From a virus (Duplodnaviria; Caudoviricetes): a stretch of 28,573 bases of DNA. The notes below the pieces were generated by a model. The model was not told the DNA's origin and did no database searches. It saw nothing but the letters and a program-made list of their open reading frames with translations. Position numbers and translations under genes: made by a program. This document shows, piece after piece, positions 6,046 to 28,573 of the stretch. The stretch spans positions 1 through 28,573 of IMG/VR virus record IMGVR_UViG_3300032373_001175. One strand, 5' to 3'. Positions within the stretch are counted from its first letter, which is position 1. Every line of letters starts with the position of its first letter.

Positions 6046-6046
6046 A

Positions 6047-10353: not shown

Positions 10354-10361
10354 GGTGCCTC

Positions 10362-10754: not shown

Positions 10755-10785
10755 AGTGTTCTCCTATTTGTTTTGGGTTGATTGT

Positions 10786-10820: not shown

Positions 10821-10851
10821 AACACACGAAGCGCAGAAAATCAGAGGCAAA

Positions 10852-11603: not shown

Positions 11604-11606
11604 GGC

Positions 11607-11939
11607 CTACAAGCCTACGTTAAGTAGCACTTTAACCGTTGCATCACCGGACGCTGCGGCCTCAGCCGCCACGCCCACAATGGTATTACCCGATGCAGTG
11701 GTGGTCAGATTGCTGTTGGTGCTGTTCCAATAGAGCTTTTGCCCTTGGGTTACAGCGCCGCTGGCTTTTGCCACGCTAAACACGCCGCGCACATGCACCG
11801 CGCCTGTTTTGCCATCGGCGATGGCGGTTTTAGCCACCCCGCCAATGACGCCAATCAGCACAAAATCACCGGAAGCAACATCTGCGCCCGATGGGGTATA
11901 ATCGAGGGCATTACCCTCTTGAACATAGTTAGTAGCCAT
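11607..11939 (-). CDS. DUF2190 capsid decoration/cement protein
   Basis: MATNYVQEG, GVA...IA.G..G.V...GVF and G.KLYW motifs; directly after the capsid gene. Confidence 0.85.
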   Translation of the reverse strand: MATNYVQEGNALDYTPSGADVASGDFVLIGVIGGVAKTAIADGKTGAVHVRGVFSVAKASGAVTQGQKLYWNSTNSNLTTTASGNTIVGVAAEAAASGDATVKVLLNVGL

Positions 11940-11965
11940 AAGTTTTCTCCTAATAAATTGGCATT

Positions 11966-11989
11966 AAAAAAGCGGCTGGGTAGCCGCTT
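11966..11989 (-). terminator. Intrinsic terminator after the capsid gene
   Basis: The minus strand reads AAGCGGCT-ACCC-AGCCGCTT followed by further Ts. Confidence 0.75.
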
Positions 11990-12014
11990 GTGTTAGGTTG
12001 GTTTAAGTTACGTT

Positions 12015-13994
12015 TTACGCGCCCGGATTCTTGTACAGAGTACGGAATTCAAGCGGTGCGGCAGCAGCATCGATGCGGACTTTGTATTCCACCCCATCAA
12101 TGTTCCAGCCATCCTGCTGATCCAAGAACGGTGCTGCGACACCATCCAAATAACCCACTTCAATCGTATCGAAGCGGTTAGGATCGGATAGTAGGTACCA
12201 TGCAGAGGTTGAATCCTCATCTAAGCGTGCATCTACAATCACCTCAGCAGCATTACGCACCGGGTTAGGCTTGCGGCTGTTGTTTTGTGATGGATCAGTT
12301 TCCGAAACCATCAGCACGCGAGCCGTATCTTCCAGCGCCGCAGGCACAAGAAAGAAGGATGGCGAGATATTAAGCGTCGCCTTGCCATCTTTTTGTGTGC
12401 GCATTGCAGTACGCCCAGCACCCACCGCTGCCGCACTTGGTGCTGCGCCGGAGCCTGCAAGGTTTTTGTGATCCGCGTGGAATAGCGCCGTACCATCGCT
12501 CATATTTGGATTGCTGGTAATGACGTTAAACACCAGATCACCAACGGTGCGAGCTGCAGCGCGGCCCATCTTGCGTGGAATCTCGGTAAAGGCAGTCAGA
12601 TCATCATTGATGATGGCTTGGCGGGTAATACTGAACAATTTACCATAGGTCGCCAGCTTGATGCTTTCTGCACGCTCACCGACGGTGCCATGCTTGTATT
12701 CACCACCTTCAGCTACTTCATCCAGCGAATCAAATACGCCCATACCCACGCGGCTATGCTCTTTGAAGTCGGAAAGATTGCCAGTGCGGGTAAAGCGCTG
12801 GAAAACCTCTTCGGCTTCCTCATATCCGCGCAGCATTGCCTTGCGTGAGTTGTTCTCTAGGATTTTAGGGAAGTCACTGCTGCTATGTGTAAATGCGCGG
12901 CCCACCAGCTCGCGTTTGTCCATACGCTCGGTGCGCACGCCACATAGCTCCAGCGACTTACGCGCCATCTCCATTAAGGTGAAGCCACATAAATCGGTTG
13001 GCTTGGCATCCTTATCGGCAATGCCAGCGCGGAAAGCAATGGCATCGGAAGCGGCGCGAGAGAATTTCTCTACATCACTTTCGCCCATCTCAATGCGCTG
13101 GCCATTGGCAGCAGGCTGCTCATTTTTGCCGATCGCATCGAGCAGCTGCTTGCGTGCCTCGTTGACATCAATCTCCGGATCATCAAGGCAAGCATCGCGC
13201 ACTTCCACATGGTCATCATGGCCTTCAAACAAGCCGCGAATCTCAGTGCGACGCTCTTTTTCAGCGGTTAGCGTTTCCTGACGTAAGGCATCCTTATCGA
13301 CAGGCGGGGTAGCCGGGGTGGACGTTTCTTTACGCTCCGGCGTTTCATTATCTACGACTTTCTTAGGCATAGGTTTCTCCTTTTGGTTTGGTTGGGGTTG
13401 GGGTTGGGTATTGAGGTCAGAACCCTCACGGCTCATCTCCTCGGCACTCCGACCAACCCCAACGGTGGGATCAGCGGGAATATCGACCAGTGAAATCTCC
13501 ATCGGTGTCCAGCTGACCACCCGATAGAGATCTGGTTTATCTTTGTGTTCTTCTTCCAGCTTGCGCTCATTGATGCGGTAGGCCACGGATACGTTGCGCA
13601 AAATGCCATCGCGCACATCCTGCCAAATGCCCTCCACCTCGGCGCGTTTGGAAAGGCGCACCTCAGCATAGCCACGGCCATTTTCCAGCCATGCACGCTC
13701 GACCACGCCAATACGATTTTCTCGATCGTAACGATCATGGTTGTAAAGCAGCGGGGCGCTATTATTGAGGCGCTCCATATCCACCTCAGCACGTTCATGC
13801 CCCAGCACTTCTACCCATGGCTCGCTAAAAAAGCTCTGCCGGGTGATAGGCTCCTCTGAAGAAAAAGAAAGCCGCACGAGGCGGCTTTCATCATCAACAA
13901 TCGAATCCTTGGTTAAATCAATCGTCCGGGTCAGCATCTCCGGGCTTTTTGTCTCCGGTTTTGTCTCCGGACTCTTCGTCATCTTCTTTGGCAT
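12015..13994 (-). CDS. Prohead protease (HK97/S78-like) fused to major capsid protein; probable internal start at 13370
   Basis: Protease motifs SFSSE, LLYNHD, GILRNVSVAY and EISLVDIPAD are followed by capsid motifs HSSSDFP.IL, TYGKLFSITRQAIINDD and DTIEVGYLDG. AAGGAG RBS before ATG 13994. Confidence 0.9.
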   Translation of the reverse strand: MPKKMTKSPETKPETKSPEMLTRTIDLTKDSIVDDESRLVRLSFSSEEPITRQSFFSEPWVEVLGHERAEVDMERLNNSAPLLYNHDRYDRENRIGVVERAWLENGRGYAEVRLSKRAEVEGIWQDVRDGILRNVSVAYRINERKLEEEHKDKPDLYRVVSWTPMEISLVDIPADPTVGVGRSAEEMSREGSDLNTQPQPQPNQKEKPMPKKVVDNETPERKETSTPATPPVDKDALRQETLTAEKERRTEIRGLFEGHDDHVEVRDACLDDPEIDVNEARKQLLDAIGKNEQPAANGQRIEMGESDVEKFSRAASDAIAFRAGIADKDAKPTDLCGFTLMEMARKSLELCGVRTERMDKRELVGRAFTHSSSDFPKILENNSRKAMLRGYEEAEEVFQRFTRTGNLSDFKEHSRVGMGVFDSLDEVAEGGEYKHGTVGERAESIKLATYGKLFSITRQAIINDDLTAFTEIPRKMGRAAARTVGDLVFNVITSNPNMSDGTALFHADHKNLAGSGAAPSAAAVGAGRTAMRTQKDGKATLNISPSFFLVPAALEDTARVLMVSETDPSQNNSRKPNPVRNAAEVIVDARLDEDSTSAWYLLSDPNRFDTIEVGYLDGVAAPFLDQQDGWNIDGVEYKVRIDAAAAPLEFRTLYKNPGA

Positions 13995-15495
13995 CGGGGT
14001 CTCCTTGGTTTTCGTTGAAAAGGTTAAGTTGTTGGCCACCATTGCTGGTGCTGAAATTTAGGCCAGCTTCGGTTTCCTCTTCGCGTTCCTGCTTGATTTG
14101 CTCAAACACATCCTGCGGATTATTGCCGCGTTCGCGGATCACCTGCGCACGCGATTTGAAGCCAGCTTGCACCATCTTCTCTTCCGCATTGGCCTCTTTT
14201 TGCGGGTCAATCCACGGCATGACCGGGCCTTGGAAGCTGGCTTTTTTCAAGCTGCGTGGGTTGATCTGTTCACCCGCACCCTCCAGCTGGCCGGAAAGCA
14301 CCGCCATATCGACGAACTTTTCCCAAATGGGCCGCACGCAGCGTTCGGTGAAATACTCGCGCAGCACGCCATAATTGACCGATTGCTCGACCAGCTCTTG
14401 GCGCTGCGAGCTGTAAGTACCGCGATAATCTTTTGAGATGGACGAAAAGCTGGTCGACGTGCCAGCCGCCACCGCCCGAAGCTGCGAATTGCGAAATTGC
14501 TCCAGCATCGAATTGGGCCGATTACTATCAATCATGCCCACCTCTTCACCGGGGAGTAGATTGTCAAAAATCATGCCCGGCTGCATCTTCATCAAGCGAT
14601 TGCCAGTATCATCCACCTGCAGGCCAGAGGTCGGCCCATCGAGGCTTTTGCGAATATATGCGCAAATGGATGCTGCCACTTTTGCCGCCAACCGTTCTGA
14701 CAGCTCGTAATCCTTCACATCCTCCAGCCGCGTCATCACATTTGCAAACACCGACACACCACGCGTTTGGCTAATGCGCCGCGCAATTTTGATGTGAATC
14801 ATTTTCTCAGCGGCGAAGCGTTTGGTATCGCGCTTTAAGGTAATCACATGGTTATCGCCCGGATGATCTTTATAGAGGTAATACGCCTTCGGCCTGCGCC
14901 AGACGTTTTTCTCCACCCCATGGATAATGCGCTTTTTCTCATCATTGAGATCAAACGGTAAAAAGTCCGCCTCGATCATCTCCAGCGAGTAAGGCACGAT
15001 GGTACCGTGATCCAAGTCACGGCGCGTACCTTCCACATGCTTCAGCAACACCTCACCATCACGAAACCAATGCCGGGCCAGCAACCGCAGCATCTGGTTC
15101 CAATGATGCTCCCATGTCACCTCCGGGAAGCGAATCCATTCCTCCCACAGCTCCATCAGCTGCTTGTTGACATCTGTTGCCAGCTCGCCGTTTTTCAGCT
15201 TCACTTGCGGCTCCACCGCCACACCGCGACCCACGACATTATTGACCAGGCAATCCAGCACGCCTGTTGCCAGATCGTGGTTCTCATCCAAATGCCGAGC
15301 CTGCAGCCGTAAGGATTCTCCGGCACGCTCGACAATCGCATCACCGCTGCCGGGGTCGGTTTTGGTTTTACGCAGGCGCGAGGGTTGCGCCGCCTCATAC
15401 GCACGCTGCGCTTTGAGGATTTTGCGTGCCGTATCACGGCGCAATGCCGCTTCCGGCGAGACCAGCTCAATTGTTTTATCGATTACATTAGACAT
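13918..15495 (-). CDS. Portal protein, lambda gpB family
   Basis: YEAA, LR..AR.L..N, DGEVL, RGVS.FA, YSS.RQEL.E and MPWIDP.KE motifs. Confidence 0.93.
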   Translation of the reverse strand: MSNVIDKTIELVSPEAALRRDTARKILKAQRAYEAAQPSRLRKTKTDPGSGDAIVERAGESLRLQARHLDENHDLATGVLDCLVNNVVGRGVAVEPQVKLKNGELATDVNKQLMELWEEWIRFPEVTWEHHWNQMLRLLARHWFRDGEVLLKHVEGTRRDLDHGTIVPYSLEMIEADFLPFDLNDEKKRIIHGVEKNVWRRPKAYYLYKDHPGDNHVITLKRDTKRFAAEKMIHIKIARRISQTRGVSVFANVMTRLEDVKDYELSERLAAKVAASICAYIRKSLDGPTSGLQVDDTGNRLMKMQPGMIFDNLLPGEEVGMIDSNRPNSMLEQFRNSQLRAVAAGTSTSFSSISKDYRGTYSSQRQELVEQSVNYGVLREYFTERCVRPIWEKFVDMAVLSGQLEGAGEQINPRSLKKASFQGPVMPWIDPQKEANAEEKMVQAGFKSRAQVIRERGNNPQDVFEQIKQEREEETEAGLNFSTSNGGQQLNLFNENQGDPDAKEDDEESGDKTGDKKPGDADPDD

Positions 15496-15715
15496 CTGAA
15501 AAATCCGCTAAGGCTGCTTGTTGGTTGTTTTGAATCGTTTGGGTAAAGGCAGAAACGCGGCGTTCCCAATATTGGATTTGCTCGCGTATTTCTTTTGAAT
15601 TAGCCAGCGTTAGGCTACGGCCATTCATTGAATAGCTTTGCCCCTTGGCCACGGCGATATCCGCTGCAACCCATGCATCCAGCGCGGTCTGTGCTTGTGT
15701 TAATGTAAGGCTCAT
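15488..15715 (-). CDS. gpW-like head completion protein (DUF6148-like)
   Basis: The start is re-called at MSLTLTQAQ. It has GQSYSMNGRSLT.AN..EIREQIQYW and lies between TerL and portal. Confidence 0.8.
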   Translation of the reverse strand: MSLTLTQAQTALDAWVAADIAVAKGQSYSMNGRSLTLANSKEIREQIQYWERRVSAFTQTIQNNQQAALADFSDV

Positions 15716-15900
15716 ACCAATCCCTCCTTTTTGGCCAGCCACACCGGAACGCAAATAGCGTCCTCGACTTGGGTGGTGTATTGGCGGGATAAAAAGACAC
15801 TCTTGTCTTTAATCTTCACCTGATAGGCCCGTAATGTGCCGTTTAAAAACTCACACGGGATTTTTACTACGCTATTATTGCGGTGTGATCGTCTGCTCAT
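15712..15900 (-). CDS. 62 aa hypothetical phage protein
   Basis: It fills the gap between TerL and gpW, has an ATGA coupling to gpW, and ends in VPVWLAKKEGLV, a pattern seen in small phage proteins. Confidence 0.65.
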   Translation of the reverse strand: MSRRSHRNNSVVKIPCEFLNGTLRAYQVKIKDKSVFLSRQYTTQVEDAICVPVWLAKKEGLV

Positions 15901-15914
15901 AAAAACTCTCTTGT

Positions 15915-17750
15915 TTAGTTAAAATTCCAATCCTCATAACCCATCCACTCGTTGGTAGATGCACCATCAGGCTTCTCAGTGTCGGTGCGTTGCTTAAGTC
16001 GCTCGCGCTCCTGTTCTTTTGCCAACCGATCAAGGTTGGGATTCAAAATATGCAGCGCCGCCATGCTGTAGACGCGGCAATCCAACGCCTCGTTGCGGCG
16101 ACCCTTTGGCATCACCCAAATGCGTGTGGGGTGGCCATTAACAAACTTGGTCTGTATGCGCTCTGCGGTGAGCTGCTTGAAATACTCCTCCGGGTAATCC
16201 GCAGGAAAATGACAATAGCCCGGCCCCGGCTGGTGTATCTTCAGCCGCGAGTAGATCATCTGCTTTGCTGTATCAGTGCCGATTGAAAACAATTTCACGC
16301 GTAGCTTATTAGCTTTGCTGAATTTGCTCACCAGCGGTTTACCCATCTGCGATGCACCTTTGATCGCATAGATGCGGCGATATTCCCGCGCCTTGCAATA
16401 TTCATAGACACGCTGCGTTTGGTGACCGCCCGAATCCACACAGGCGCAAGCCACCGGAAGTGTGCGCCCATCGTTGGTTTGAATTGTCTGCGACAGCACA
16501 TTGTCGAGATCTTCCCAAACCTTATTTTGCGCCGGATCGCCATGCAGCACATGATACTGCAGCGACCAGCTTTCCTGACCCACACCCCAGCCAATTACCT
16601 CAGCCTCTAGGCGGTCATCCTGCACATCGACGCCAGCGGTAATCGCCACCACGCCTTCGGGTGCCACACGCCCCCAGTTTTCTTTGCGGCCCAGCAATCC
16701 GGATGGATCAACGCCCTCGGTTTTCTCCTTCCATGTTTCGCCAAGCGAGGTGTTAACCCAAACCTTCAATGTTTCCGGCAGGCGCTTGGCCTTGAGGAAA
16801 TTCTCCACCATCTCGGCCCATTTCACCCATGGGCTATACAGCTCATTGATGTGAAACCCGGCAATGCCGTTAAACGCTGCTTCAGCTCGCCATTCGCCAT
16901 GGCCCAGCATCCACATTTTGTCACTTTCCTTTAAATGCGCCTCGCAATGCTCGCATTCGTAATAGGTCGTTTCAGGCTTTTTCTTTTCAAACTTTACTTG
17001 GCTCCATGACAGCACCTCAAATGCGCCGCACTCCGGGCATGGCACATAAAACTTGCGCTGATCGCTTTGCTGATAGCGCGATTCAATCTTGCTCTCATCC
17101 TCGACCGTTGGCGTGCTAACCGACACCAACAAGCGATTCCAAAAGGTGGTCGTCCGCTTTTGCGCCAGCGAGCCGGGATCACCCTCCGTGCCTGCTGAAT
17201 GAGGATAACGATCTTCCTCATCCAGCAGAACAATCCGGATGGGCCTGCTGGCGAGGGAGGAAGGGCTATTGGCACCAGCCATGGTGATATGCCCACCCGG
17301 AAACTTTTTATGTAGCAGCGTATTGTTACTATCGCGGCTGCGTGGATCGCCAAACAGATCGGTCAGCTCATCCGTATCGCGGATCATCGGAGCGAGGCGA
17401 TCCTTGCTCCATGTCTCCGCCATATCCAGCGTTGGCTGAATCAGCAGCAGCGGTGATGGGTCTTGGTGAGCAAAATAGCCCACGATATTATTTATAATCT
17501 CCGTTTTTCCAATTTGTGAGCTGGTCATAAACACCACCTCAGATACGCCCACCTCATTAACCGCATCCATCATGCCGCGCTGGTATGGCGCACGCTCGGT
17601 TACCCAACGGCCCGGCTCGCTACTCGCTTCCGGACTCAGCCTCCGAAACTGATCCGCCCACTGGCTCACCGTCAGCTCCGGCGGCGGCATCCAAGCTAAC
17701 GCCACTTTCTTCAAGGCTTTCGGATAGGTCTTCGTCTGTTGTGGTTTCAT
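15915..17750 (-). CDS. Terminase large subunit, lambda gpA family
   Basis: LTVSQWAD, PYQR..MDA, SSQIGKTE (Walker A), LLDEED (Walker B), STPT, CPEC/CEHC, GVDVQDDR, DSGG and RNEALDC motifs. The start is re-called at ATG 17750. Confidence 0.95.
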   Translation of the reverse strand: MKPQQTKTYPKALKKVALAWMPPPELTVSQWADQFRRLSPEASSEPGRWVTERAPYQRGMMDAVNEVGVSEVVFMTSSQIGKTEIINNIVGYFAHQDPSPLLLIQPTLDMAETWSKDRLAPMIRDTDELTDLFGDPRSRDSNNTLLHKKFPGGHITMAGANSPSSLASRPIRIVLLDEEDRYPHSAGTEGDPGSLAQKRTTTFWNRLLVSVSTPTVEDESKIESRYQQSDQRKFYVPCPECGAFEVLSWSQVKFEKKKPETTYYECEHCEAHLKESDKMWMLGHGEWRAEAAFNGIAGFHINELYSPWVKWAEMVENFLKAKRLPETLKVWVNTSLGETWKEKTEGVDPSGLLGRKENWGRVAPEGVVAITAGVDVQDDRLEAEVIGWGVGQESWSLQYHVLHGDPAQNKVWEDLDNVLSQTIQTNDGRTLPVACACVDSGGHQTQRVYEYCKAREYRRIYAIKGASQMGKPLVSKFSKANKLRVKLFSIGTDTAKQMIYSRLKIHQPGPGYCHFPADYPEEYFKQLTAERIQTKFVNGHPTRIWVMPKGRRNEALDCRVYSMAALHILNPNLDRLAKEQERERLKQRTDTEKPDGASTNEWMGYEDWNFN

Positions 17751-18198
17751 AATCAGCCATCTCCGCCAGCGCCTCATAGATGGTGCGCTTGAGGAATTTC
17801 TCAATTTCTTCCGGTTTTTCTAAATGGGCAATTTGGTAAGCAGTCTTGGTAGGAATACCGAGCATCTTCGCCCTGCATGCTGCCACCATATCTGTCCAAT
17901 CCGCCTCCACGCGCTCCACGGTCACCAGCGACCCGGTGCGCTCGGCCAGTTCAATCTCCGCCATGTCCGCCTGCGCCTTTAATAATCGCGCACGCTCAAG
18001 ATGCGTATCCTGCGGCACAGCGCCTTTGCCAAATGCACGCTGCTGCAGATAATCGATGTAGGATCGAACGCTTCCAACCAGCTCGTACTGGTTCTTTTCT
18101 GGCTTGGGTATAATCCCTTCTTGGGCCAGCTGCTGCACGCGTCGCTCGGTTAATCCAAACAATTTGGCGATGGTTGATACAGGATAGGACGTAGCCAT
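17620..18198 (-). CDS. Terminase small subunit (Nu1-like)
   Basis: N-terminal HTH (IAKLFGLTERRVQQL..EG), coiled coil ERARL.KAQAD..E.....G.LV, and overlap with the TerL start. Confidence 0.9.
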   Translation of the reverse strand: MATSYPVSTIAKLFGLTERRVQQLAQEGIIPKPEKNQYELVGSVRSYIDYLQQRAFGKGAVPQDTHLERARLLKAQADMAEIELAERTGSLVTVERVEADWTDMVAACRAKMLGIPTKTAYQIAHLEKPEEIEKFLKRTIYEALAEMADYETTTDEDLSESLEESGVSLDAAAGADGEPVGGSVSEAESGSE

Positions 18199-18239
18199 TT
18201 AACACACTCATTTTATTACACTTTTTCCATCGAATTGAC

Positions 18240-18268
18240 TTGATTAAGCCTGTGATTGAAGCATTCAT
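18240..18268 (+). promoter_or_regulatory. Putative promoter for the DUF3489-like gene
   Basis: TTGATT-N17-ATTCAT, with a similar motif before DUF2924 at 25760-25788. Confidence 0.4.
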
Positions 18269-18314
18269 AGGATTGTCCACAGGGCAAATATTAACCAAAC
18301 CAAGGAGTGTTTAA

Positions 18315-18812
18315 ATGACTCAACTTTCACCAACGCAACAACGCATCATCGACGATGCCATTAAAAACCCAGCCACCTGCATCACCGAATGCATGGGCCA
18401 TATCAAAAACCCGATGATCCGGCAAAAGAGCCTCGACTCTATGCTGGCAAAGGGCTTGCTTAACAAGCGCTTCACCGACATGGGCAAAGAAACCTACCTG
18501 CTATCCGATGCCGGGCTTGCAGCGGCAAGCAACGCACCGCAACGCGAGGCAACGCCAAGCAACACCCCGCAGCAGAATGCAACGCCGGGGGACGAGCCGA
18601 AGCGCGAAACCAAACAATCGATTATCATCGAGCTGCTTTCCCGCGAAAATGGCACCACGCTGGCAGAGTTAATCAAAGCCACGGAATGGAAACCACACTC
18701 GATACGCGGCCACCTCTCAAACCTACGCAAGAAGCGCGGACTGCCGATCGAAGCCTTTACCACCAGCGAAGGCGTGCGCGGCTACCGCCTCATTGAGGCT
18801 CAAGCCTCCTGA
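18315..18812 (+). CDS. DUF3489-like winged-helix protein
   Basis: AAGGAG RBS. The C-terminal TKQ..II.LL.R..G.T..EL..AT.W..HS.RG.LS...KK.GL...R.YR pattern is characteristic of DUF3489. It overlaps the MTase 3' end by 13 nt. Confidence 0.85.
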   Translation: MTQLSPTQQRIIDDAIKNPATCITECMGHIKNPMIRQKSLDSMLAKGLLNKRFTDMGKETYLLSDAGLAAASNAPQREATPSNTPQQNATPGDEPKRETKQSIIIELLSRENGTTLAELIKATEWKPHSIRGHLSNLRKKRGLPIEAFTTSEGVRGYRLIEAQAS

Positions 18813-20032
18813 CGCTTCGCAGCGATCTGCGCAAACGTCTTTTTTTCACCGGCCAGCTTCGCGTTGTTGCCGGTGAACTCTTCCCACCGTTTAACAATCA
18901 CATCACAAAATATCGGATCAAGCTCAATCAGCCGCGCCTGACGCTTCAGCTTCTCACACGCAATCATCGTCGTGCCAGAGCCACCAAATGAATCCAGCAC
19001 TATATCTTTAGTTTTACTCGAGTTTTCCACCGCCCGGCACACCAGCTCCACAGGCTTCATGGTCGGGTGCAAATCGTTGGTTCTTGGCTTATCATAATGC
19101 CACAGATCGCTTTGATCCCGCGCACCACACCAGAAATGTTTATTGCCATCCGGCCAGCCATAGAGGATAGGCTCATATTGCCGCTGATAATCGGCCCGGC
19201 CCATAGTAAAGTGGTTCTTACCCCAGATGATAAAGGTCGACCATTTGCCACCAGCATCATTGAACGCCGCGAATAGCGTATGCAGCTCGGACGAGCTCAT
19301 ACAGATGTAGAGCGCTCCTTTGCAAACCTTCACCATTTCACCGCAGGCATCGGTCAAGAACTGCTTAAACTCACCACCAAGATTATCATTTTTGATCTTA
19401 CGTGGTTTGCCGCGCAGATTATCCTTCATGGTTTGACCATAATCGACATTGTAAGGCGGGTCGGTAAACACCATGTCCGCCAGCTCATCGCCCATCAGCT
19501 TCTTCATCGTTTTTGCTTTGGTGCTATCGCCGCAGATCAGCTTATGATCACCTAGCAGCCACACATCGCCTTCTTTGCTAACCGGAGTTTCCGGTGCTTC
19601 TGGTACTTCGTCATCATCCGTGAGGCCATCCATCGCCGCGCCATCGAGCAGCTTCTCCAGCTCCACGGTTTCAAACCCGGTCAGATCTAAATCGAAGCCC
19701 AGCTCATCCAACTCGCCAAGCTCGATCGCCAGCAATTCCTCGTCCCACTCGGCATCCTCATGGGTGCGGTTGTCAGCCAGCCTGTAAGCCTTTATCTGCG
19801 CACTCGTGAGGCCAGTGGCTATATGTATGGGTATTTTCTTTAACCCCAGCGACTGTGCGGCCTGTAGGCGCGTGTGACCTGCAATGATAACCAGCTCCTC
19901 ATCCACTACAATGGGCTGGCGAAAACCATACTCCTTAATCGATGCCGCCACTTTGGTGATAGCGTTTTCGTTGCGGCGCGGGTTTCTCACATAAGGAACC
20001 ACCCGGCCAATATCAATCAGCTCTACTTTCAT
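18800..20032 (-). CDS. ParB-N-domain-fused N6A/N4C DNA methyltransferase (beta-class motif order)
   Basis: ParB-like PY.RNPR, SI.EYGF..PI, IIAGH.RL.AA and YRLADN; MTase motifs TDPPYN, HPTMKPV and DSFGGSGTT. Confidence 0.92.
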   Translation of the reverse strand: MKVELIDIGRVVPYVRNPRRNENAITKVAASIKEYGFRQPIVVDEELVIIAGHTRLQAAQSLGLKKIPIHIATGLTSAQIKAYRLADNRTHEDAEWDEELLAIELGELDELGFDLDLTGFETVELEKLLDGAAMDGLTDDDEVPEAPETPVSKEGDVWLLGDHKLICGDSTKAKTMKKLMGDELADMVFTDPPYNVDYGQTMKDNLRGKPRKIKNDNLGGEFKQFLTDACGEMVKVCKGALYICMSSSELHTLFAAFNDAGGKWSTFIIWGKNHFTMGRADYQRQYEPILYGWPDGNKHFWCGARDQSDLWHYDKPRTNDLHPTMKPVELVCRAVENSSKTKDIVLDSFGGSGTTMIACEKLKRQARLIELDPIFCDVIVKRWEEFTGNNAKLAGEKKTFAQIAAKRQEA

Positions 20033-20079
20033 GTTTTCTGCCTCTGTTTTGTTGATTAATTCTGTGCATACAAAACCTT

Positions 20080-20246
20080 AGCGAAATGGCTCCAAATAAG
20101 GCCATTTCGCTGTTTCGCATATTAAGTCTTTGATATGTAAAGGTTTGCAGCCCGCCCAAACGAAACGAAATGCTTTTCTAGAATTTGTGGCTAGTAAAAC
20201 GCCGCGCCCTCGGCGTACCCGCAGGGGGGACGGGCCGGGAGTACCT
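20080..20246 (-). other. Putative lambda-like cos packaging site (cosQ-cosN-cosB)
   Basis: Minus-strand order is AGGTACT (cosQ-like, 20246-20240), then CTGCGGGTACGCCGAGGGCGCGGCGTTTT (cosN-like), CGAAAY repeats, an exact IHF consensus TATCAAAGACTTA (20135-20123), and an 11 bp inverted repeat at 20080-20111. Confidence 0.65.
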
Positions 20247-20276
20247 TTTTGAATCCCACCGATTCACCCCAGCGGA

Positions 20277-20861
20277 TTAGCGCCGTTTGATCCTGTTGAT
20301 ATAGAAGTCGAGGTTGCGCCGGAACTCAATTGGGAAGCGCTCCAACACTTTCATTTGCATCACCTGGTCGTTTTCTCTTTGCTTGAACAACTGCATGATG
20401 CCGGGGCCGTACAGCATTTTAAGCGGCAGGCGTTTGCCACTCTTACGCATGTAAACCGTTGTCTTACTTGAGCCTCTCTTTCGCGGCGCGATGAACGCTT
20501 GGTTCAGCGTGCGTGTCTTGCCGTACACTTTGGCTCGCACCACACCACGTTTGCCACCGGGTTGTTGCGTTGGCTTCTTGCTGCCGATCACAAACTCAAT
20601 CAACTGCAGCGCACGATCGCGTGCCACCAGCGTTGCCCACAGCGTCTTGTGCGTGGCCTTGCGTGTTTCAATGCGGCGCTTCACAGCAGCCTGCCTGCTA
20701 TTCATTTGCGGTGCGATGTGTCTGGCGCTCGCCACCTTTGCACTGTTGGCCACACGGTTGAGGGTGCGCACTGTCGCCTGCGGTGCCACCTCACGTTCAA
20801 GCGAGTTTAAGCTCCGCATCAACTTTTTAAGGTCGTGCTGAATTGTAATATCAAAGGACAT
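20277..20861 (-). CDS. Basic gpZ-like minor tail / tail completion protein (194 aa)
   Basis: The start is re-called at ATG 20861 (AGGAG RBS). It has RTLNR.A, GV.A.V, AFIA and RLPL..LYGP motifs typical of lambda gpZ-like proteins. Confidence 0.75.
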   Translation of the reverse strand: MSFDITIQHDLKKLMRSLNSLEREVAPQATVRTLNRVANSAKVASARHIAPQMNSRQAAVKRRIETRKATHKTLWATLVARDRALQLIEFVIGSKKPTQQPGGKRGVVRAKVYGKTRTLNQAFIAPRKRGSSKTTVYMRKSGKRLPLKMLYGPGIMQLFKQRENDQVMQMKVLERFPIEFRRNLDFYINRIKRR

Positions 20862-20906: not shown

Positions 20907-21848
20907 ATGAGAGCCACAGGAAGAGACATCGTAGAACTTTTTGGATACCGACCGGATGACACCAGTCGGGAAGCAGTTAGTGCCTTTCAAAATGCGCTTT
21001 GTCCCTTTACGAACAGCACTTGCACGAAAACCAATCACGATCAGAGTGTTACTTACGGTACTTGTTCTGTTTCAAACGGCGTAAACAAAGCCAATGGCTC
21101 AGAAATAATCATTTGCCCAAAGAGGCTATATGCTCGCAAGCATGCATTGTTTTCTCATGTACTAGAGTCTGTATGGCCAGATCGTTCTAAAGATTTAATT
21201 TCTGGTGGCACACTTCAAGAACTCAAAGATCGTGCATCAGCGGCAAAAAATCCAGTCATCGCATTTGGTCAAGGCTCTGGCAAAGAGATTCAAGTTAAAG
21301 CTAATGGCCAATTGAGCATGGATTGGGTGTTACAATCATATGAAAATGTTAACAACCAACTTAAACCACAGCAATTTGTAGGCATCGAAGTCCAGAGTAT
21401 CGATATAACAGGCAATTACCGCGACAATTGGAATGCTTATCGTAAAATCAAAGAAGGTGAAAATCTCACCGACATACCGAAATCAGGGCATGGCCTAAAT
21501 TGGGCAAATGTTCATAAACGGCTTATTCCACAGATCATCCGTAAAGGGAATATTTATGAAAAGATTGAGCGTTGCGTAGGCTTTTTCTTTATTGTTCCTG
21601 ACTCTGTCTATCAAAAATTTGAAGAAGTTATTGGTGATGTGCCGCATGCAAGTGGCCCAAGCAGAGAGAATCTTTCTGTAATAACTTTTCGTCTAGGTGA
21701 AGAGGTTCAAGATGGAGAACACCGTAACCTAGAGCTTGTTCGTCAGGTGCATCACCCAATTAATGATATTGCGGCTGCTTTTATAGCGAATCTTTCTGAA
21801 GATGCTCCATCAGCCTTAGATAACAGTTTACGCAGTATCTTCGACTAA
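20907..21848 (+). CDS. NotI-family type II restriction endonuclease
   Basis: N-terminal four-Cys cluster CPF....C.K, GTCSV and IICPKR (the NotI metal-binding fold), nuclease core MDWVL...GIEVQSID.TG and NW....KRL.PQ...KG. It is adjacent to a C5 MTase; the start is re-called at ATG 20907. Confidence 0.85.
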   Translation: MRATGRDIVELFGYRPDDTSREAVSAFQNALCPFTNSTCTKTNHDQSVTYGTCSVSNGVNKANGSEIIICPKRLYARKHALFSHVLESVWPDRSKDLISGGTLQELKDRASAAKNPVIAFGQGSGKEIQVKANGQLSMDWVLQSYENVNNQLKPQQFVGIEVQSIDITGNYRDNWNAYRKIKEGENLTDIPKSGHGLNWANVHKRLIPQIIRKGNIYEKIERCVGFFFIVPDSVYQKFEEVIGDVPHASGPSRENLSVITFRLGEEVQDGEHRNLELVRQVHHPINDIAAAFIANLSEDAPSALDNSLRSIFD

Positions 21849-23102
21849 AATTCTTTCATTAAGCGACAACGGCATTTGTGGAACATGCCATATATGCTTG
21901 TTTTCTTCGATAGCAGAATCATTATCTAAATATGCGAATATAGACCTACCTATTTCAGCTGCAAGAGCTGGTGGAACTGCGTTGCCGACTTGCTCATATT
22001 GTTCAGTTAGTGATCCATAAAAACGAAACTTGTCTGGAAAAGACTGTATTCTCGCAGCTTCCCTAACACTGATAATTCTATCTTGCTCATAATGAATATA
22101 TGTTCCCCAGTGAGGATCACACTTAGTTAGTATGGTGCTACCAATACCATTAGGGTCTAATCGGCCATAGCGTTTCGTATGATCTGATCGCCGTGCGCGT
22201 TTCATTCCCTCTGGGAGAAGGTCATATGGTATATCGCGCCACGACCCACCTGGAGGTATATGAGGCAATCTATCTAAGTTTGCTTTGCCCAATCCAGCAC
22301 TTTTATGATTATACAAGGTTTGCGAGTTACCTCGCAAGCTCTTCTGAAACTTCGTCTGGGCATTTTTTGTATAAGACATGACATCATCCCCACCACCATT
22401 CTCGATAACTGGCAGGTCACTTATCGCTTGTGTAACAGTCACATTTTTGGGCAAGTAATCTAATTTCTTTGCATCAACAATAATACTATGGCCTAGGTGT
22501 TTTGTTGAAAAGTTTGCTCGCCCCATAGCAAAATGAGTTGGAACGGGATACATATCTGTGGGATCAACATCTATCCTATTTGCAATAAAAATTGTCCGCC
22601 AGCGCATCTGCGGAACACCATAATGTGCAGCGTATAAAATCTTTACAGTAGCGTCATATCCAAGCTGCTTTAAGCTGTTAAGTATAGAAGCGACTGTCTT
22701 ACCTTTCTCAAATGAAAGCATGCCAGGAACATTTTCAATCAAGACAACTTTAGGGCTAAAAGCCTCTACGAATTTAAGAAAATCTAAAAATAAATGATTT
22801 CGTTCATCGTCTGTCGATCGTGTCGGAGCATTAACACTAAATCCTTGGCAGGGAGGGCCTCCCGCTAAGATATCTAGCTCGCCACTTGCAATATTTAATC
22901 GTTTTCTAATTTGATTTGCATCTAAAGAGCGTATGTCAGCAGTTTCAATCTCTGAGTCAGAATGATTTCTTTTAAGTGTTTCTGAATAAGCTGGTGAAAT
23001 CTCATTTGCAAAAATGCTCGTAAAGCCTGACTGCCTAAGCCCCTCTGTAAGGCCACCGGCTCCAGCAAATAAGTCTATACACGTTTTTTCCTTAGATTTC
23101 AT
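21828..23102 (-). CDS. DNA (cytosine-5) methyltransferase, cognate MTase of the R-M pair
   Basis: Motif I DLFAGAGG, IV GGPPCQGFS, VI ENV, VIII Q.R.R, IX REAARIQSFPD and X QVGNAVP. It overlaps the endonuclease convergently by 21 nt. Confidence 0.95.
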   Translation of the reverse strand: MKSKEKTCIDLFAGAGGLTEGLRQSGFTSIFANEISPAYSETLKRNHSDSEIETADIRSLDANQIRKRLNIASGELDILAGGPPCQGFSVNAPTRSTDDERNHLFLDFLKFVEAFSPKVVLIENVPGMLSFEKGKTVASILNSLKQLGYDATVKILYAAHYGVPQMRWRTIFIANRIDVDPTDMYPVPTHFAMGRANFSTKHLGHSIIVDAKKLDYLPKNVTVTQAISDLPVIENGGGDDVMSYTKNAQTKFQKSLRGNSQTLYNHKSAGLGKANLDRLPHIPPGGSWRDIPYDLLPEGMKRARRSDHTKRYGRLDPNGIGSTILTKCDPHWGTYIHYEQDRIISVREAARIQSFPDKFRFYGSLTEQYEQVGNAVPPALAAEIGRSIFAYLDNDSAIEENKHIWHVPQMPLSLNERILVEDTA

Positions 23103-23170: not shown

Positions 23171-23191
23171 CGTAATCCATTCACTTTCTTA

Positions 23192-23290
23192 TCAAGCAGC
23201 CAACCGTTGCTCACGGGCATTGAGTATCACCGCCCAGTCTTGTAATTGCTCGACTAATTGGTTCGAACTATCTAAGAGAGTGTCCACCAA
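23192..23290 (-). pseudogene. Orphan 32-codon C-terminal fragment ending in LAA, probably cut from its gene by integration
   Basis: It reads LVDTLLDSSNQLVEQLQDWAVILNAREQRLAA-stop. It has no RBS, has an in-frame stop 8 codons upstream, and begins inside the tRNA-like junction. Confidence 0.45.
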
Positions 23291-23295
23291 ATTTT
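23256..23295 (+). other. Putative att junction containing a tRNA-like 3' end
   Basis: TTGGTTCGAACTATCTAAGAGAGTGTCCACCAA contains a T-loop-like GGTTCGAA, an acceptor-like ...GTGTCCA-CCA end and imperfect TTGGT/ACCAA symmetry. It lies at the border between two mobile blocks. Confidence 0.5.
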
Positions 23296-23470
23296 CTCGT
23301 TGTTTTTCAGTGCGTTAGGTAACTTTTGGTGTACCGCGCTGTTAGCGCCACTCACGGCTATGGGGAGTCTTCTTCTCAACATCATGACCTGTATATTATT
23401 GTAATTATTAGGTAAAATCTATCAAAGACATCAGCAGGAAATTCCCGCCGACCTCATCAGGGTTTTGCGC

Positions 23471-23496
23471 AATAAAAAAGCCAGATAATCTGGCTT
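23471..23496 (-). terminator. Intrinsic terminator after the recombinase
   Basis: The minus strand reads AAGCCAGA-TTA-TCTGGCTT followed by TTTTATT. Confidence 0.75.
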
Positions 23497-23528
23497 CAGC
23501 TTTTGTAGTGCGGTGATGGTTAAATTGG

Positions 23529-25247
23529 TTACTGTGTGAGAAGTAACTTCTCTTGCTCCCGCCAATTCCACGCATTGCAGGCGATTAGTTGCTCGATATT
23601 TATTTGGTTTGGATTATCATTTGAAGTAATTTGCTTGATAATTTTTGGGGAGAGGAATTTTAATTTCAGGGCGCGTTTTACATATTCTGTATTGTGTCCA
23701 TCAATCGCAGCGATTTCTTTGTGGGTTTTGTAAACTCTATCTTCAATCTGCTTATGCCAATAAAAGGATTTTGCTAGCATGGAAAAAGTTTTGTCATTTG
23801 AGTGGCTGTACTCTGAGCTGAATTTTTCTTCTGATTTCTGGCCATCTCCTGTAATGATTTGTAGTTGTCCGCTAACTTTTTTATATTGCGCTGGAATGTT
23901 CAATTTGATTTTTAGGCAAGATTCTGTTGCAGAAATCTCTGCATTATATTGCTGCAAAATATTTTTAATTTCTTGTGTAGGGTCATTGCCTAAATTTTTT
24001 CCTTCCAAATCCAAATTAAGGTCTAATTTCATATGTTGTGGGAATAAAGTTATCTTTTCTAAGAATTCAATTGGCGTTGTAACTAGCTGTTTTAACGGTC
24101 TTAATAGTGTGAATGATAGCTCATGATTTGCAGATTTTACGATGGAATCTATCAGTGTTTTTAGCAAGGCCATAATTGCTTTGGTAATAATATCGTCAAT
24201 ATAATCAGCGCGGATGCGTTTGAAATCCGATATCGTTTTGCCTTTTACAGAAATCTCTCGATTAATGTAATAACGCATTTTGTATCGGCCTGCGGCAGAG
24301 TATTTGTAGGAATAGGTCGGGCTGAGACGGTAGCCGAGATAGTCGTAGATTTTACCAGTCAGTTTAGGCTGTTCAGATGTCTTACTGGGATTGAGGGTAA
24401 ACTCCTTCTTGGTGATTTTATTGTGAACTTTATGCCATAATTCATCATCAATAATAGCCGCATGCTCCCCGTCATAAACCTCGTTCTTATGCTTCATTTT
24501 GCCGTTGTAGAGCGGATTATTAAGAATGTTATAAATCTGGTTCAGGTTAAATTCTTTACCGATGATCTGATTGCCCTTTTTGCTGGTATATAACTTCCCC
24601 TTATATCCTTTGGTTTTCAGTATATCTAATAGCTTATAGAGTGGTTCACCTGCTGGGTTTTTAGCGTAATATTCAAAAATAAACTGGATAATCTGTGCCT
24701 CATCCTCATTCACAATGAGTTTACGATCTTTAACATCATAACCAAGCGGTTGTGGACCGCCCATCCACATGCCTTTCTTCTTAGATGCAGCGAATTTATC
24801 GCGGATTCTCTCGCCCGTCACTTCACGCTCAAATTGGGCAAAGGAGAGCAATACATTCAGCGTCAGTCGTCCCATTGAAGTTGTCGTATTAAAAGCCTGC
24901 GTCACCGACACAAAAGATACCGAATTTGCATCAAATATCTCCACCATTTTAGCAAAATCACTGAGTGCACGGGAAAGGCGGTCTACCTTGTACACTACAA
25001 CAATATCAATCTTCCCCACCTCAATATCGGCGAGCAATTTCTTGAGTGCTGGGCGCTCCATATTTCCACCGCTATAGGCAGCGTCATCGTATGGTGTTGA
25101 AATAACCTGCCAGCCTTCATGTTTTTGGCTGGTGATATAGGATTTCCCTGCTTCACGCTGAGCATCCAGCGAATTGAACTCTTGCTCCAACCCTTCCTCA
25201 GTAGATTTTCGGGTATAAATTGCACAGCGTATAGTTTTCTTTTTCAT
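23529..25247 (-). CDS. Large serine recombinase (integrase)
   Basis: CAIYTRKST (catalytic Ser), NSLDAQRE, SGG.MERPAL, DRLSR, FAQFERE and P.GY, followed by a recombinase domain; 572 aa. Confidence 0.95.
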   Translation of the reverse strand: MKKKTIRCAIYTRKSTEEGLEQEFNSLDAQREAGKSYITSQKHEGWQVISTPYDDAAYSGGNMERPALKKLLADIEVGKIDIVVVYKVDRLSRALSDFAKMVEIFDANSVSFVSVTQAFNTTTSMGRLTLNVLLSFAQFEREVTGERIRDKFAASKKKGMWMGGPQPLGYDVKDRKLIVNEDEAQIIQFIFEYYAKNPAGEPLYKLLDILKTKGYKGKLYTSKKGNQIIGKEFNLNQIYNILNNPLYNGKMKHKNEVYDGEHAAIIDDELWHKVHNKITKKEFTLNPSKTSEQPKLTGKIYDYLGYRLSPTYSYKYSAAGRYKMRYYINREISVKGKTISDFKRIRADYIDDIITKAIMALLKTLIDSIVKSANHELSFTLLRPLKQLVTTPIEFLEKITLFPQHMKLDLNLDLEGKNLGNDPTQEIKNILQQYNAEISATESCLKIKLNIPAQYKKVSGQLQIITGDGQKSEEKFSSEYSHSNDKTFSMLAKSFYWHKQIEDRVYKTHKEIAAIDGHNTEYVKRALKLKFLSPKIIKQITSNDNPNQINIEQLIACNAWNWREQEKLLLTQ

Positions 25248-25729
25248 ATCACCGGCACCCTTGCTTTTGGTTTGCGGAGGCCGAAGAATATAGGGCCAGA
25301 AACTGCATATCCTGCAATTTCTTTGGCTAATTTTGAGAGACTTTTATAATACTGATTCTTATGCTCAAAACCATCTGTTAAAATTTTGACCTCAAGCTGC
25401 TTTCCCTTCCAATTTTTAACCAGAACAGAGCCTGCACATGGCATATTATAATCAATCGCCTTTTTTCGCTTATCAGGCTTCTTAACAAGCGTTTTACCAA
25501 TATTTTCCAAGCTGGCTTGTGTTTTTGGGTCGACATTGCCAAACAACCCCTCCTGTATGATATATAAATTCTGCCTTTCTACGCGGGATAAGGGGCCACA
25601 ATTATCTGCATATAATTCTTTTGCCCGTTTATAAAGCTGTTGTAGCTGTTTCTTATCCAGTTTTCGTAATTCATCAGAATTAAGATTTTTGATCCCTTTT
25701 TTTAAATCTACATTTTTAATCTCTGCCAT
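25244..25729 (-). CDS. DUF2924-like protein
   Basis: G..LVK.W.G....V.....GF......YKSLS..A.EI.G...SGP.FFGL is the DUF2924 pattern. It has an ATGA overlap with the recombinase; the start is re-called at ATG 25729 (GGAG RBS). Confidence 0.8.
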   Translation of the reverse strand: MAEIKNVDLKKGIKNLNSDELRKLDKKQLQQLYKRAKELYADNCGPLSRVERQNLYIIQEGLFGNVDPKTQASLENIGKTLVKKPDKRKKAIDYNMPCAGSVLVKNWKGKQLEVKILTDGFEHKNQYYKSLSKLAKEIAGYAVSGPIFFGLRKPKARVPVI

Positions 25730-25759
25730 AAAGCGCTCCGTAATTATATTAACAACCAC

Positions 25760-25788
25760 AGTAACGCTCTGTTATAAGGGTAAGTCCA
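25760..25788 (-). promoter_or_regulatory. Putative promoter for the DUF2924-recombinase pair
   Basis: TGGACT-N17-GTTACT, resembling the motif at 18240-18268. Confidence 0.4.
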
Positions 25789-25799
25789 GTAGAAAGAAG

Positions 25800-26882
25800 T
25801 CATGTTCCTAGTTCTGCCTCACCTTCCTTCAAGCATCTACCAAGTTGAGACCTATATGTTCCTTTGGCTTTTTCTTCGTATTTTTCTTTCCATTCTTCTA
25901 TGCTGTCACACCCCGTCGGAACTATGGCAACACCATGGTCAAACATAAATTTTGCCTCAAACACTTCTTCAGGAGCTTTTTCATACCATTCATCATGTGA
26001 ATAATATTTCTTGGGAACGTGTATAGCACCAAATGCTGGCTTCATTTGCCCTTGTAAAAATTGATAAGCAAAAGCATGAGCTCCAATTTTATAACGAAGA
26101 TTTACCAGCTCTTGATAGGATTCTCTTTCTGGATGTAGAGCATCCCATTTTTTACGTTTTATCATTTTACCACTAGATAGGATCCACTCTTCATCTTCTA
26201 CAGCAAAAGCTGGAAGGTTAATATGGTGCCAATCACTAGATTTCTGCAATATATGACCACATAAATCATTTTCATGCAGGCGCTGCATAACAATAATAAT
26301 TGCACCATCATGCTTGTCATTAAGGCGCTGATAAATGTTCTGATCAAACGTCAGGTTAACGTTCTTGCGTTCAGACTCATCCATAGCTTTTGAGGTGCTA
26401 ATTGGATCATCAATAATAACTACATCAGCTCCCACACCAGTAAGCGACGTTTCCATGCAGGCACTTTTGCGAAAACCGCCAAATTGCGTTGATATTCTTC
26501 TGGAAGATTGTGAATATGCAATTTGAGAAAAGAGAGCTCTGTAACGATTAGATTTAACCAGCCTGTAAAAATTATCTTCAAGATCTGATCCTAAATCATT
26601 GCTACCAGTAATGCATAAAATATTCTTGGTTGGATCGCGCCCTAACACCCATGCAGGAAATGATATGCTTGCGCAGTGAGATTTTAACATCCTAGGTGGC
26701 AAGTTAATAATAAGGCGTTTTATTGCGCCAGATTCAACTTTAGCCAAAGCTTCTGCAATAACATTAATATGCCAGTTGTGAGTGTACTTAATATGAGGAT
26801 TCAGCTCATTAAACGCAAACTGAGTAAAGCTGCAGAAATCATGTTTATAGAGTTTCTGCATATCTTCAGGAGTTATTTTCAT
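25800..26882 (-). CDS. Terminase large subunit-like ATPase domain, lacking the C-terminal nuclease
   Basis: RLIINLPPRMLKS (Walker A variant), LTG.GAD..IIDDP (Walker B), IIIVMQRLHE.DL.G and F.YQ..Q, then about 80 aa with no recognisable RNase H-like motifs. GGAGG RBS before ATG 26882/26885. Confidence 0.8.
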   Translation of the reverse strand: MKITPEDMQKLYKHDFCSFTQFAFNELNPHIKYTHNWHINVIAEALAKVESGAIKRLIINLPPRMLKSHCASISFPAWVLGRDPTKNILCITGSNDLGSDLEDNFYRLVKSNRYRALFSQIAYSQSSRRISTQFGGFRKSACMETSLTGVGADVVIIDDPISTSKAMDESERKNVNLTFDQNIYQRLNDKHDGAIIIVMQRLHENDLCGHILQKSSDWHHINLPAFAVEDEEWILSSGKMIKRKKWDALHPERESYQELVNLRYKIGAHAFAYQFLQGQMKPAFGAIHVPKKYYSHDEWYEKAPEEVFEAKFMFDHGVAIVPTGCDSIEEWKEKYEEKAKGTYRSQLGRCLKEGEAELGT

Positions 26883-27252
26883 CATCACCTCCATCATTAT
26901 ATTGGGACATTATAGATTTAAGGACAGCCTCATCCTCAGGCATAATTTCAAAATCAGGTACTTCATCAATTTCTCCCTCTAGTTTTAAAGCTATTTTAGC
27001 CATAGATGCATTGCCTTTGATGCCAAGGTTATAAATTTGATCTATAAGAAGTTGTCTTTTGGTTTTGTTGATCATCTGACCATTTGCCCCCTTGACCCGA
27101 ACTTTAGTGCTTGAAACAGATCTAATATCATCCTGAAAGGTATTAGGCTTTTTCTTAGGTCTGCCTTTTGAGTTACAAGATTGCCCTTTTGTGAACTGTC
27201 TGGACTTAGGTGGCTTGCCGTAACCAACTTTATAATCATCATTATTACTCAT
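26866..27252 (-). CDS. DUF5681-family protein (TerS-position gene)
   Basis: Y.VGYGKPP...QF.KGQS.N.KGRPK motif; AGGAGG RBS before ATG 27252. Confidence 0.8.
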   Translation of the reverse strand: MSNNDDYKVGYGKPPKSRQFTKGQSCNSKGRPKKKPNTFQDDIRSVSSTKVRVKGANGQMINKTKRQLLIDQIYNLGIKGNASMAKIALKLEGEIDEVPDFEIMPEDEAVLKSIMSQYNDGGDDENNS

Positions 27253-28573
27253 GGTCACCTCCTTGAACTTCTACAGCTAGTTCGTTGAATGTTTTACCGG
27301 ACTCTGCATGCACAGCATTCTTACCGGTTTTCTGCTGCCAGCGCCTGATGGCTGTATCAACATATTTAGGATCAATTTCTATGCCATAACAAATACGTCC
27401 AACACGTTCTGCAGCTATAAGGGTGGAGCCACTACCAAGGAACGCATCCAGAATAATTTCTCCGCGTTTTGAGCAATCCATAATCGCATCTGCAATCATG
27501 GCAACAGGTTTGACTGTGGGGTGCATTTCTAGGTCAGATTGATTCCTGCCGAAGCTGTTGACTCCAGCATAGTCCCAAACATTAGTGCGGTAGCGACCAT
27601 GCTTGCCAAGTTCAATATTGTTAATATGAGCTTTGGTTCCATGTTTAAATACAGTGATCATCTCATATTTTGAACGGTATAGACTGCCCATACCGCCATT
27701 ATTTTTATTCCAGATGCAGATATTTTTAAGTTCGGTATAGATAGATTTTCCTGTAACTAATAATTTATCAACTCCACGCCAATCGATGCAAATGTAATGC
27801 AATGAACCATCATGACTAAAATCACAAACCTGCTTACAGAAATCATTTAAGAACTGCTGGAATTGCTCCTCAGTCATCTCACCGGATGCCATAGAAAATT
27901 CTGAATGTTTAACTTTTCCATTACCACAAACATGACCATCTATTGGTACATTATAAGGCGGATCTGTGAAGATCATACGGGCTTTTTTGCTCTGCATAAG
28001 ATCAGTATAGGTTTGTAGCTTTAATGAATCACCACATATCAAACGATGTTTCCCCAACTGCCAAATATCACCAAGTTTTGTAATAGTTACTGCATCATTA
28101 ATTTCAGGAATTTCATCCGCAGGATCAGTCTCAATAATATCAACACCATCAATGATGATATCAATCTCTGCCATTTCAAAACCTGTAATTTCAAGTTCAA
28201 GACCTGGATCAAGTGATGATAAATGCTGAAACTCAATTGCTAGAAGCTCCGTATCCCAACCAGCATTCTCTGCAATTTTATTATCAGCAATGATATATGC
28301 ACGAATTTGACCATCAGTCAGATTCTCAAGACAAAGTGTTGGAACTTCTTTAATGCCCAATTTCTTCGCGGCCATAACACGACCATGACCCGCAATAATG
28401 CGATTATTTTTATCTATTAAAACTGGGGTGGTAAAACCAAACTCAATTATGCTATTAGCAATCTGCTGCACCTGCTTCGGTGAATGCGTACGAGCATTAT
28501 TTTTGTAGAGCTTTAGAACAGTAGTCGGCTTTAGTATGATCTGATGGTCAGTTTTTTTATATATACTAGTCAT
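27245..28573 (-). CDS. Second ParB-N-domain-fused N6A/N4C DNA methyltransferase
   Basis: NARTHS..Q..QIA.SI.EFGF..P, IIAGHGR and YIIADN; MTase motifs TDPPYN, HPTVKPV and DAFLGSGST. Confidence 0.92.
   Translation of the reverse strand: MTSIYKKTDHQIILKPTTVLKLYKNNARTHSPKQVQQIANSIIEFGFTTPVLIDKNNRIIAGHGRVMAAKKLGIKEVPTLCLENLTDGQIRAYIIADNKIAENAGWDTELLAIEFQHLSSLDPGLELEITGFEMAEIDIIIDGVDIIETDPADEIPEINDAVTITKLGDIWQLGKHRLICGDSLKLQTYTDLMQSKKARMIFTDPPYNVPIDGHVCGNGKVKHSEFSMASGEMTEEQFQQFLNDFCKQVCDFSHDGSLHYICIDWRGVDKLLVTGKSIYTELKNICIWNKNNGGMGSLYRSKYEMITVFKHGTKAHINNIELGKHGRYRTNVWDYAGVNSFGRNQSDLEMHPTVKPVAMIADAIMDCSKRGEIILDAFLGSGSTLIAAERVGRICYGIEIDPKYVDTAIRRWQQKTGKNAVHAESGKTFNELAVEVQGGDHE

Follow-up and report, generated by a model that had tools for sequence, protein, structure and literature searches.

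A severed serine integrase tail ending in Leu-Ala-Ala at a prophage attachment site: a candidate recombination-switched degron

Background

In phage lambda, integrase is under the control of sib, a negative signal that spans attP and, working via the mRNA, affects the expression of integrase on the circle alone. The arrangement described here would be a putative counterpart acting at the level of the protein.

Serine integrase genes that overlap their own att sites are already published, namely those of the Dehalococcoides ssrA islands (DsiB; McMurdie et al. 2011, PMC3146451) and of the streptococcal ICEs that integrate in rumA (Ambroset et al. 2016, PMC4701971). DsiB is likewise a large serine integrase, with a gene whose 3' end overlaps the att site, a tRNA-like target, and a C-terminus that is variable when integrated; its describers suggested that DsiB may be fully functional only on the circle (PMC3146451). 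However, DsiB targets tmRNA and is carried by islands that are not phages, whereas the targets of the family considered here are, besides tmRNA, no fewer than 19 types of tRNA, each at its CCA end, and no tail motif or degron is described in the available portions of the DsiB paper. In the rumA ICEs the att site also lies inside the gene of the serine integrase, and the excised form has a different C-terminus, but the target is a protein gene whose 3' end is exchanged reciprocally with that of the integrase, and the accessible text proposes no degron.

In other cases the recombinase is a tyrosine enzyme. For instance, attP of the myxophage Mx8 is found within int, and integration rewrites the C-terminus of IntP and changes its activity (PMC6070905, PMC4701971, PMC4383910). 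Mx8 differs from the present system in that 112 residues are replaced by 13, in that the effect is on the activity of a tyrosine recombinase, and in that these sources, in the parts available, describe no degron. In the integration-dependent immunity of the mycobacteriophage BPs and its relatives, attP lies in a phage gene, and integration into a tRNA gene removes an ssrA-like C-terminal tag (PMC9635641, PMC3694055). The gene split in BPs is the repressor, whereas in the present system the integrase itself is split; moreover, BPs integrates by means of a tyrosine enzyme, and in the available text integration is not said to take away that enzyme's own tag, whereas the enzymes described below have serine recombinase domains. 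In the literature searched, which did not extend to most subscription journals, the TIGER paper or supplements, no report was found of a degron-switched serine integrase.

An orphan tail at the prophage boundary

The DNA analysed, hereafter the window, is a whole virus record of 28,573 bp. The features relevant to the argument are as follows.

271..20861, minus strand: prophage late genes (tail Z, ParB-methylase, terminase, lambda-type portal, capsid, GTA-like tail, holin, lysozyme; Pfam)
20907..21848, plus strand: NotI-like restriction endonuclease (PF12183, PADLOC REase_II)
21828..23102, minus strand: C5 cytosine methyltransferase of the same type II RM cassette, just behind the tail (PF00145, PADLOC MTase_II)
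23189..23203, minus strand: terminal Leu-Ala-Ala with TGA and TAA stops, a candidate ClpX degron
23195..23287, minus strand: C-terminal tail of 31 codons, orphaned from the large serine recombinase of the prophage; start-less, ending REQRLAA-stop
23219..23260, minus strand: conserved helical segment of the tail, with hydrophobic positions 11, 15, 18 and 22
23261..23266, minus strand: TCGAAC motif of the phage arm, 5 bp farther from the core than the tRNA T-loop copy
23283..23289, minus strand: core of the att site, reading TGGTGGA and complementary to TCCACCA at the 3' end of tRNA-Ala; right prophage boundary, 7 bp
23290..28573, minus strand: second element, with ParB-methylase, DUF5681, terminase-like and DUF2924 genes and its own serine recombinase (Pfam)
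23529-25247, minus strand: right-hand serine recombinase, with its own stop

A preliminary description of this DNA had recognised an att-like junction between two mobile blocks and, reading from it on the minus strand, a headless frame ending in LAA. Both observations hold: the late-gene prophage lies to the left of the junction and the second element, with its own recombinase, to the right, and the peptide and its stop at 23192 are present as described. The tail frame is open for 40 codons, of which the first nine are sequence of the right-hand element; a Leu codon spans the junction, and the true tail comprises the 31 codons from Val (23287) to a TGA stop at 23192-23194, which is followed by TAA. 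The sequence GTGTCCACCA is found at 23280-23289 and GGTTCGAA at 23260-23267, with only TCCACCA common to the window junction and the tRNA, the GTG being phage DNA. ARAGORN called no tRNA in the window, and Rfam gave no tRNA family match within 20000-24500. Two terminator-like hairpins at 23430-23497, between the right-hand recombinase and the junction, would shield the tail from read-through.

The identical 31-aa peptide is found behind the same core in three genomes (G378, G072 and G176), each with an unrelated flank, and the orphan peptide is therefore not a product of chance. Tail homologues in L010, L013 and L172 begin at the same base as that of the window, and similarity to G176, G072, L010 and L013 starts at the core base (23283..23289). 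In addition, three other studies have contigs over the tail side that end, or depart from the window, at 23289, 23290 and 23294; contigs X3 and X4 terminate at the core. Thus, a peptide that is shared while the flanks differ, taken together with these contig ends, places the boundary at the 7-bp core and assigns the tail to the prophage. A joined attP form was absent from the contigs examined; contigs drop rare forms, so that its absence says nothing on excision.

The wider searches varied in their yield. A homologous peptide, with an E-value of about 1e-12, is present in two of 60 loci (59 of which are terminase relatives), and both copies start TGGTGGAC and end AREQRLAA-stop. A pattern search of 401 genomes of the order of G010 (Rickettsiales) returned 19 matches in 18 genomes, three of the matches being the window's exact 29-mer, and DNA identical to the window is also present on a 183,970-bp contig (L264). 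We infer that the host is a Rickettsiales-type alphaproteobacterium. When the 40-aa frame was compared directly, as protein, with 27 candidates, no match reached E<=10, which is a weak test. Some candidates were discarded: the single match of the first viral pattern scan was unrelated, and seven of the nine loci from another search seemed, when inspected, to be unrelated or matched by chance.

The cognate integrase in sister prophages

The preliminary description had proposed that the orphan frame is the 3' end cut from a gene, most plausibly the integrase of the prophage itself, lying beyond position 1 where the window record ends, and this proposal is borne out in sister prophages. One of these (G176) is complete on a single contig, with late genes 87-95% identical to those of the window. 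Its large serine recombinase gene, 59,426 bp from an identical tail, runs in frame into antisense tRNA-Ala(GGC), which is the arrangement of a minus-strand gene entering a tRNA that had been predicted for the other prophage end. Joining head and tail of G176 gives a rebuilt attP that is in frame, as had also been anticipated, and rebuilding the empty site yields a tRNA that is intact. A second join, in G001 and G002 (100% identical over 16,174 bp), likewise creates an in-frame protein of 536 aa ending REQRLAA, in place of the integrated form that ends LRSTG. The sister prophages thus display the predicted swap of the tail for tRNA-antisense codons. A detail that did not survive is the tRNA end itself, which was expected to read GTGTCCACCA; the target tRNA-Ala(GGC) ends CTCCACCA.

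A natural integrase-tail fusion also exists. In G004, a related phage, the gene is found already joined, encoding 533 aa that end TLLAA, and stops 19 bp before the tail-Z gene. The cognate integrases of the sister prophages carry an N-terminal resolvase-type catalytic domain (PF00239, E 3.6e-24 and 6e-25), and a zinc-ribbon (PF13408) scored over the cut-off in both that were scanned. The PF07508 recombinase domain gave no match in either of the two, and precomputed matches to it exist on part of 120 homologues. The structural model of the natural joined protein has long helices, which fits a coiled coil, and the best fold matches are serine integrases. With regard to anatomy, the sequences leave little doubt that the att site has a prophage-side arm carrying the last 31 codons of the integrase.

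Ownership of the tail by the neighbouring DUF2924 recombinase was considered and rejected. That gene stops by itself at 23529, some 240 bp short of the site, and hence undergoes no tail swap; its product is 23% identical to the cognate integrase. A conserved ORF of about 93 aa is found directly upstream of the cognate integrase gene (L072:17383-17664; 60 of 86 loci, L078-L163); it has no Pfam match, and is a candidate recombination directionality factor.

The Leu-Ala-Ala end as a candidate degron

At the level of sequence, an ssrA-like tail is present on the joined form of the integrase and gone from the integrated forms. Seven copies share the same last eight residues (AREQRLAA), although as many as 12 of the 31 tail residues differ among them; the codons for these eight residues carry 2-5 synonymous changes, and each of TGA, TAA and TAG occurs as the stop. 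The terminal Q-R-L-A-A matches four of the five positions of the E. coli consensus [LFYW]-[LAR]-L-A-A (PMC10862746). As far as the available text of that screen goes, weak tags made up 39% of those ending in AA, and polar residues were disfavoured at the fifth position from the end (PMC10862746); the residue at this position in the window's tail is Gln. ClpX scored over the cut-off in four of five host-side genomes, and four host tmRNA tags end RAAA, RVAA, RAAA and RLAA, so that Arg also occurs in tags. In the structural model the tail is of low confidence and sits behind a disordered linker, which fits an exposed end. A separate feature of the host tmRNA tags is a duplicated-looking internal repeat, ANDN...AANDN... 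(L233:1477-1875, L235:1527-1980, L232 and L234).

The phylogenetic distribution of such ends is uneven. In a tree of 24 rows, a 99/98 branch separates four tRNA-Ala heads, of which three have AA or VA as their ending; two of these four head/tail pairs are putative pairs assembled across contigs, and one tRNA-Ala tail ends VFQI. In a separate 100/100 clade, five of seven proteins end AA/VA. A long-branch row ends KAA, and AA is found on none of 12 heads in the remaining clades. These counts are not independent, because clade members share ancestry. The background frequency among 708 ORF ends is 2.8% for AA and 3.0% for AA/VA, and none of 59 integrated forms ends in AA. Among 57 distinct helix-type tails, drawn from 186 pattern matches by a helix score that is blind to the C-terminus, four (in three of 39 clusters) end in AA, which is not significant (p=0.095 against the 2.8% background), the score having left out two VAA-ended tails (L210 and L217) along with the other 129 matches or duplicates. 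A family-wide degron was rejected, only three of the 39 tail clusters ending in AA, and from these sequences the degron looks like an add-on of some clades. For the window's tail, whether the LAA end serves as a ClpXP degron of the excised-form integrase is an evenly balanced question on the evidence of sequence.

Much of what is conserved in the family lies inside the tail rather than at its end. The conserved columns over the 57 tails are L11, F12, L15, W18 and L22, a set selected on this segment, and an AlphaFold model of the natural joined protein has a helix at 510-523, at low confidence. The tail could accordingly be a structural or regulatory helix that alters the activity or direction of the integrase in the manner of Mx8, with LAA incidental or secondary. 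We consider this unlikely as the full account, but it is the strongest of the alternatives: the conserved positions lie past the DNA-constrained codons while tail ends vary freely, and Mx8 IntP with a swapped tail is reported, in the part of the source available, to lose activity (PMC4701971). However, such a helix does not explain the invariant AREQRLAA-stop in the window's clade, the model has no confident packing of the helix (pLDDT about 38-55), and the hydrophobic moment of the window's tail helix is ordinary when compared with shuffles (1199 of 10000). A helix switch is also compatible with a degron, and both may hold. In 12 of the 39 tail clusters (L164-L222, L236-L356) the tail ends in a proline motif (PSP, PSL, PAL, PRP or PEP), possibly a second C-terminal signal.

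Another view is that the tail supplies no more than a stop codon and a tolerated end, with apparent conservation that stems from constraints on attP DNA and from recent common descent. Codons 1-9 do overlap the binding arm, the tails of the family range from 24 to 80 aa in length, and a trivial explanation is listed for the DsiB overlap in the available text of McMurdie et al. (PMC3146451). This view nevertheless appears improbable given that the synonymous bias extends far past the arm, with three close tail copies differing at 12 codons synonymously and at none non-synonymously, and given that five of six tail variants in read contigs are synonymous (by our reading).

A shifted, probable binding motif and many tRNA targets

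The preliminary description had also remarked that the spacing of the tRNA-like end is 5 nt too long for an intact tRNA. The excess is real, but its interpretation as tRNA damage is not upheld, and a 5-bp shift of a motif between attP and attB fits it better. On the minus strand, the T-loop-like motif is 16 nt past TGGTGGA, as opposed to 11 nt in tRNA-Ala, and the TCGAAC of this motif also encodes Ser-Asn of the tail. In 14 head/tail pairs, with shared att cores of 7-13 bp, the motif is at +24 in the phage arm and at +19 in the tRNA T-loop, the value of 24 having been fixed by the search. The pattern at the window's spacing gave 58 matches in 34 of 47 genomes, compared with 13 matches in nine genomes and 11 in 11 at the two control spacings tried, 3 bp longer and shorter, respectively, an enrichment of about five-fold.

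A shift of the same size is on record for the LI/A118 integrase, in which the zinc-ribbon motif of attB is 5 bp closer to the centre than that of attP (Rutherford et al. 2013, PMC3783163); in the present family the attB motif would be the tRNA T-loop. The more likely reading of GGTTCGAA is thus a motif in the phage arm to which the integrase binds, not what is left of a tRNA, with TCGAAC as a putative zinc-ribbon binding site whose role in attB would be played by the T-loop. The binding motif may lie up to about 3 bp outside positions 16-24. The head-side arm has a weak mirror motif, no single crossover dinucleotide could be assigned, and one pair (L116/L166) is mismatched at core position 4. 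A damaged tRNA 3' fragment was rejected as a candidate, identity ending after 7 bp and the arm being 5 nt longer, not shorter; damage to tRNA fragments is described in the available text of Islander as a small deletion. It is extremely improbable that the motif is left from the decay of a tRNA and that the peptide is read from a chance frame or closes some other gene, such as a repressor or the neighbouring recombinase: T-loop-like and CCA-like words are present, but natural integrase-tail fusions exist, the +5 spacing is enriched over controls, and the neighbouring recombinase has a stop of its own and low identity to the cognate one.

The pairing of a swapped tail with a tRNA end extends well beyond the sister prophages. 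A C-terminal match was found in 84 of 86 related loci, and in 64 of these ARAGORN called a tRNA or tmRNA at the junction. The integrase frame crosses the CCA end in frame in all 64, the targets being 19 tRNA types and tmRNA; the 20 loci lacking a tRNA call are in frame by construction and are excluded from this count. Among the best 120 of 2201 protein homologues, judged by eye, seven have phage-type tails and two lack the region, and most of the others end in tRNA-antisense peptides. According to the 2015 Islander paper, in the part available, only tyrosine integrases were known to target many tRNAs, and a serine integrase family with this habit departs from that statement.

Two further arrangements were noted in the course of the survey. 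Short copies of the tail arm occur in tandem and in frame, adjoining a tRNA-like end, in four loci (L178, L181, L194 and L197), and resemble scars of repeated insertion. In seven metagenome loci (L240, L248, L266, L270, L271, L299 and L337), a separate frame of 29 codons with the same core and spacing ends PEKL or PDKL, and is possibly another tail family.

Neighbouring genes and the second element

The slot between the tail stop and the tail-Z gene (20862-23188 in the window; also L223:10250-11985 and L231) is a swappable site for defence cargo. It holds the type II RM cassette in the window and in G378, PDC-M19A/B in G176, and two other genes in G072, and is empty in L010, L013, L172 and G004. 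The endonuclease and tail-Z genes of the window diverge from about 46 bp (20861-20907), leaving little room for a late promoter.

To the right of the junction, relatives of the second element are found about 180-190 bp from tRNA-Ala(GGC) in two of five instances, and beside tRNA-Met in one. Because of the two beside tRNA-Ala(GGC), the window is likely a tandem array in which the prophage was inserted between the tRNA and an older element, the second element being likely an earlier insertion at the same tRNA. Two unrelated serine integrases seem, therefore, to share tRNA-Ala(GGC) as one target.

A proposed mechanism and its implications

Taken as a whole, the locus is probably best read as a prophage-side arm bearing the tail of the integrase, with LAA making the excised form a target of ClpXP and the integrated form free of this signal. 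Under this proposal, recombination takes place at a point inside the integrase gene that coincides with the CCA end of tRNA-Ala(GGC), as seen in the sisters. Integration would leave the gene body at one prophage end, finished by about 20 tRNA-antisense codons, and the tail stranded at the other, and excision would rejoin body and tail in frame, again as seen in the sisters. The LAA tail may then cause faster ClpXP destruction of the enzyme made by the excised phage. On the free circle, in the gene order of G004, the integrase gene comes last among the early genes and precedes the late ones, and a labile form would thus limit re-integration in lytic growth. Conversely, the tail-less enzyme made by the prophage would last long enough for excision.

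A broader version of this proposal is more tentative. It would have a widespread family for which nearly any tRNA, by way of its CCA end and T-loop, can act as attB, and whose tail is switched by recombination, the tail being a working ClpXP degron in Rickettsiales-type prophages while its helix biases direction. The role of an att-overlapped C-terminus, which was left open for DsiB in 2011, is directly testable in this family because both forms of the protein are defined here. In addition, annotation and integrase-mining pipelines draw on integrated genomes, so that the end they retrieve comes from the tRNA and the enzyme form that carries out integration is missed; in genome-engineering screens this tailed form might behave differently. 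If the reading is true, the DNA state that the integrase brings about would in turn set how much of the enzyme there is, by means of about 90 bp and a host protease and with no extra regulator.
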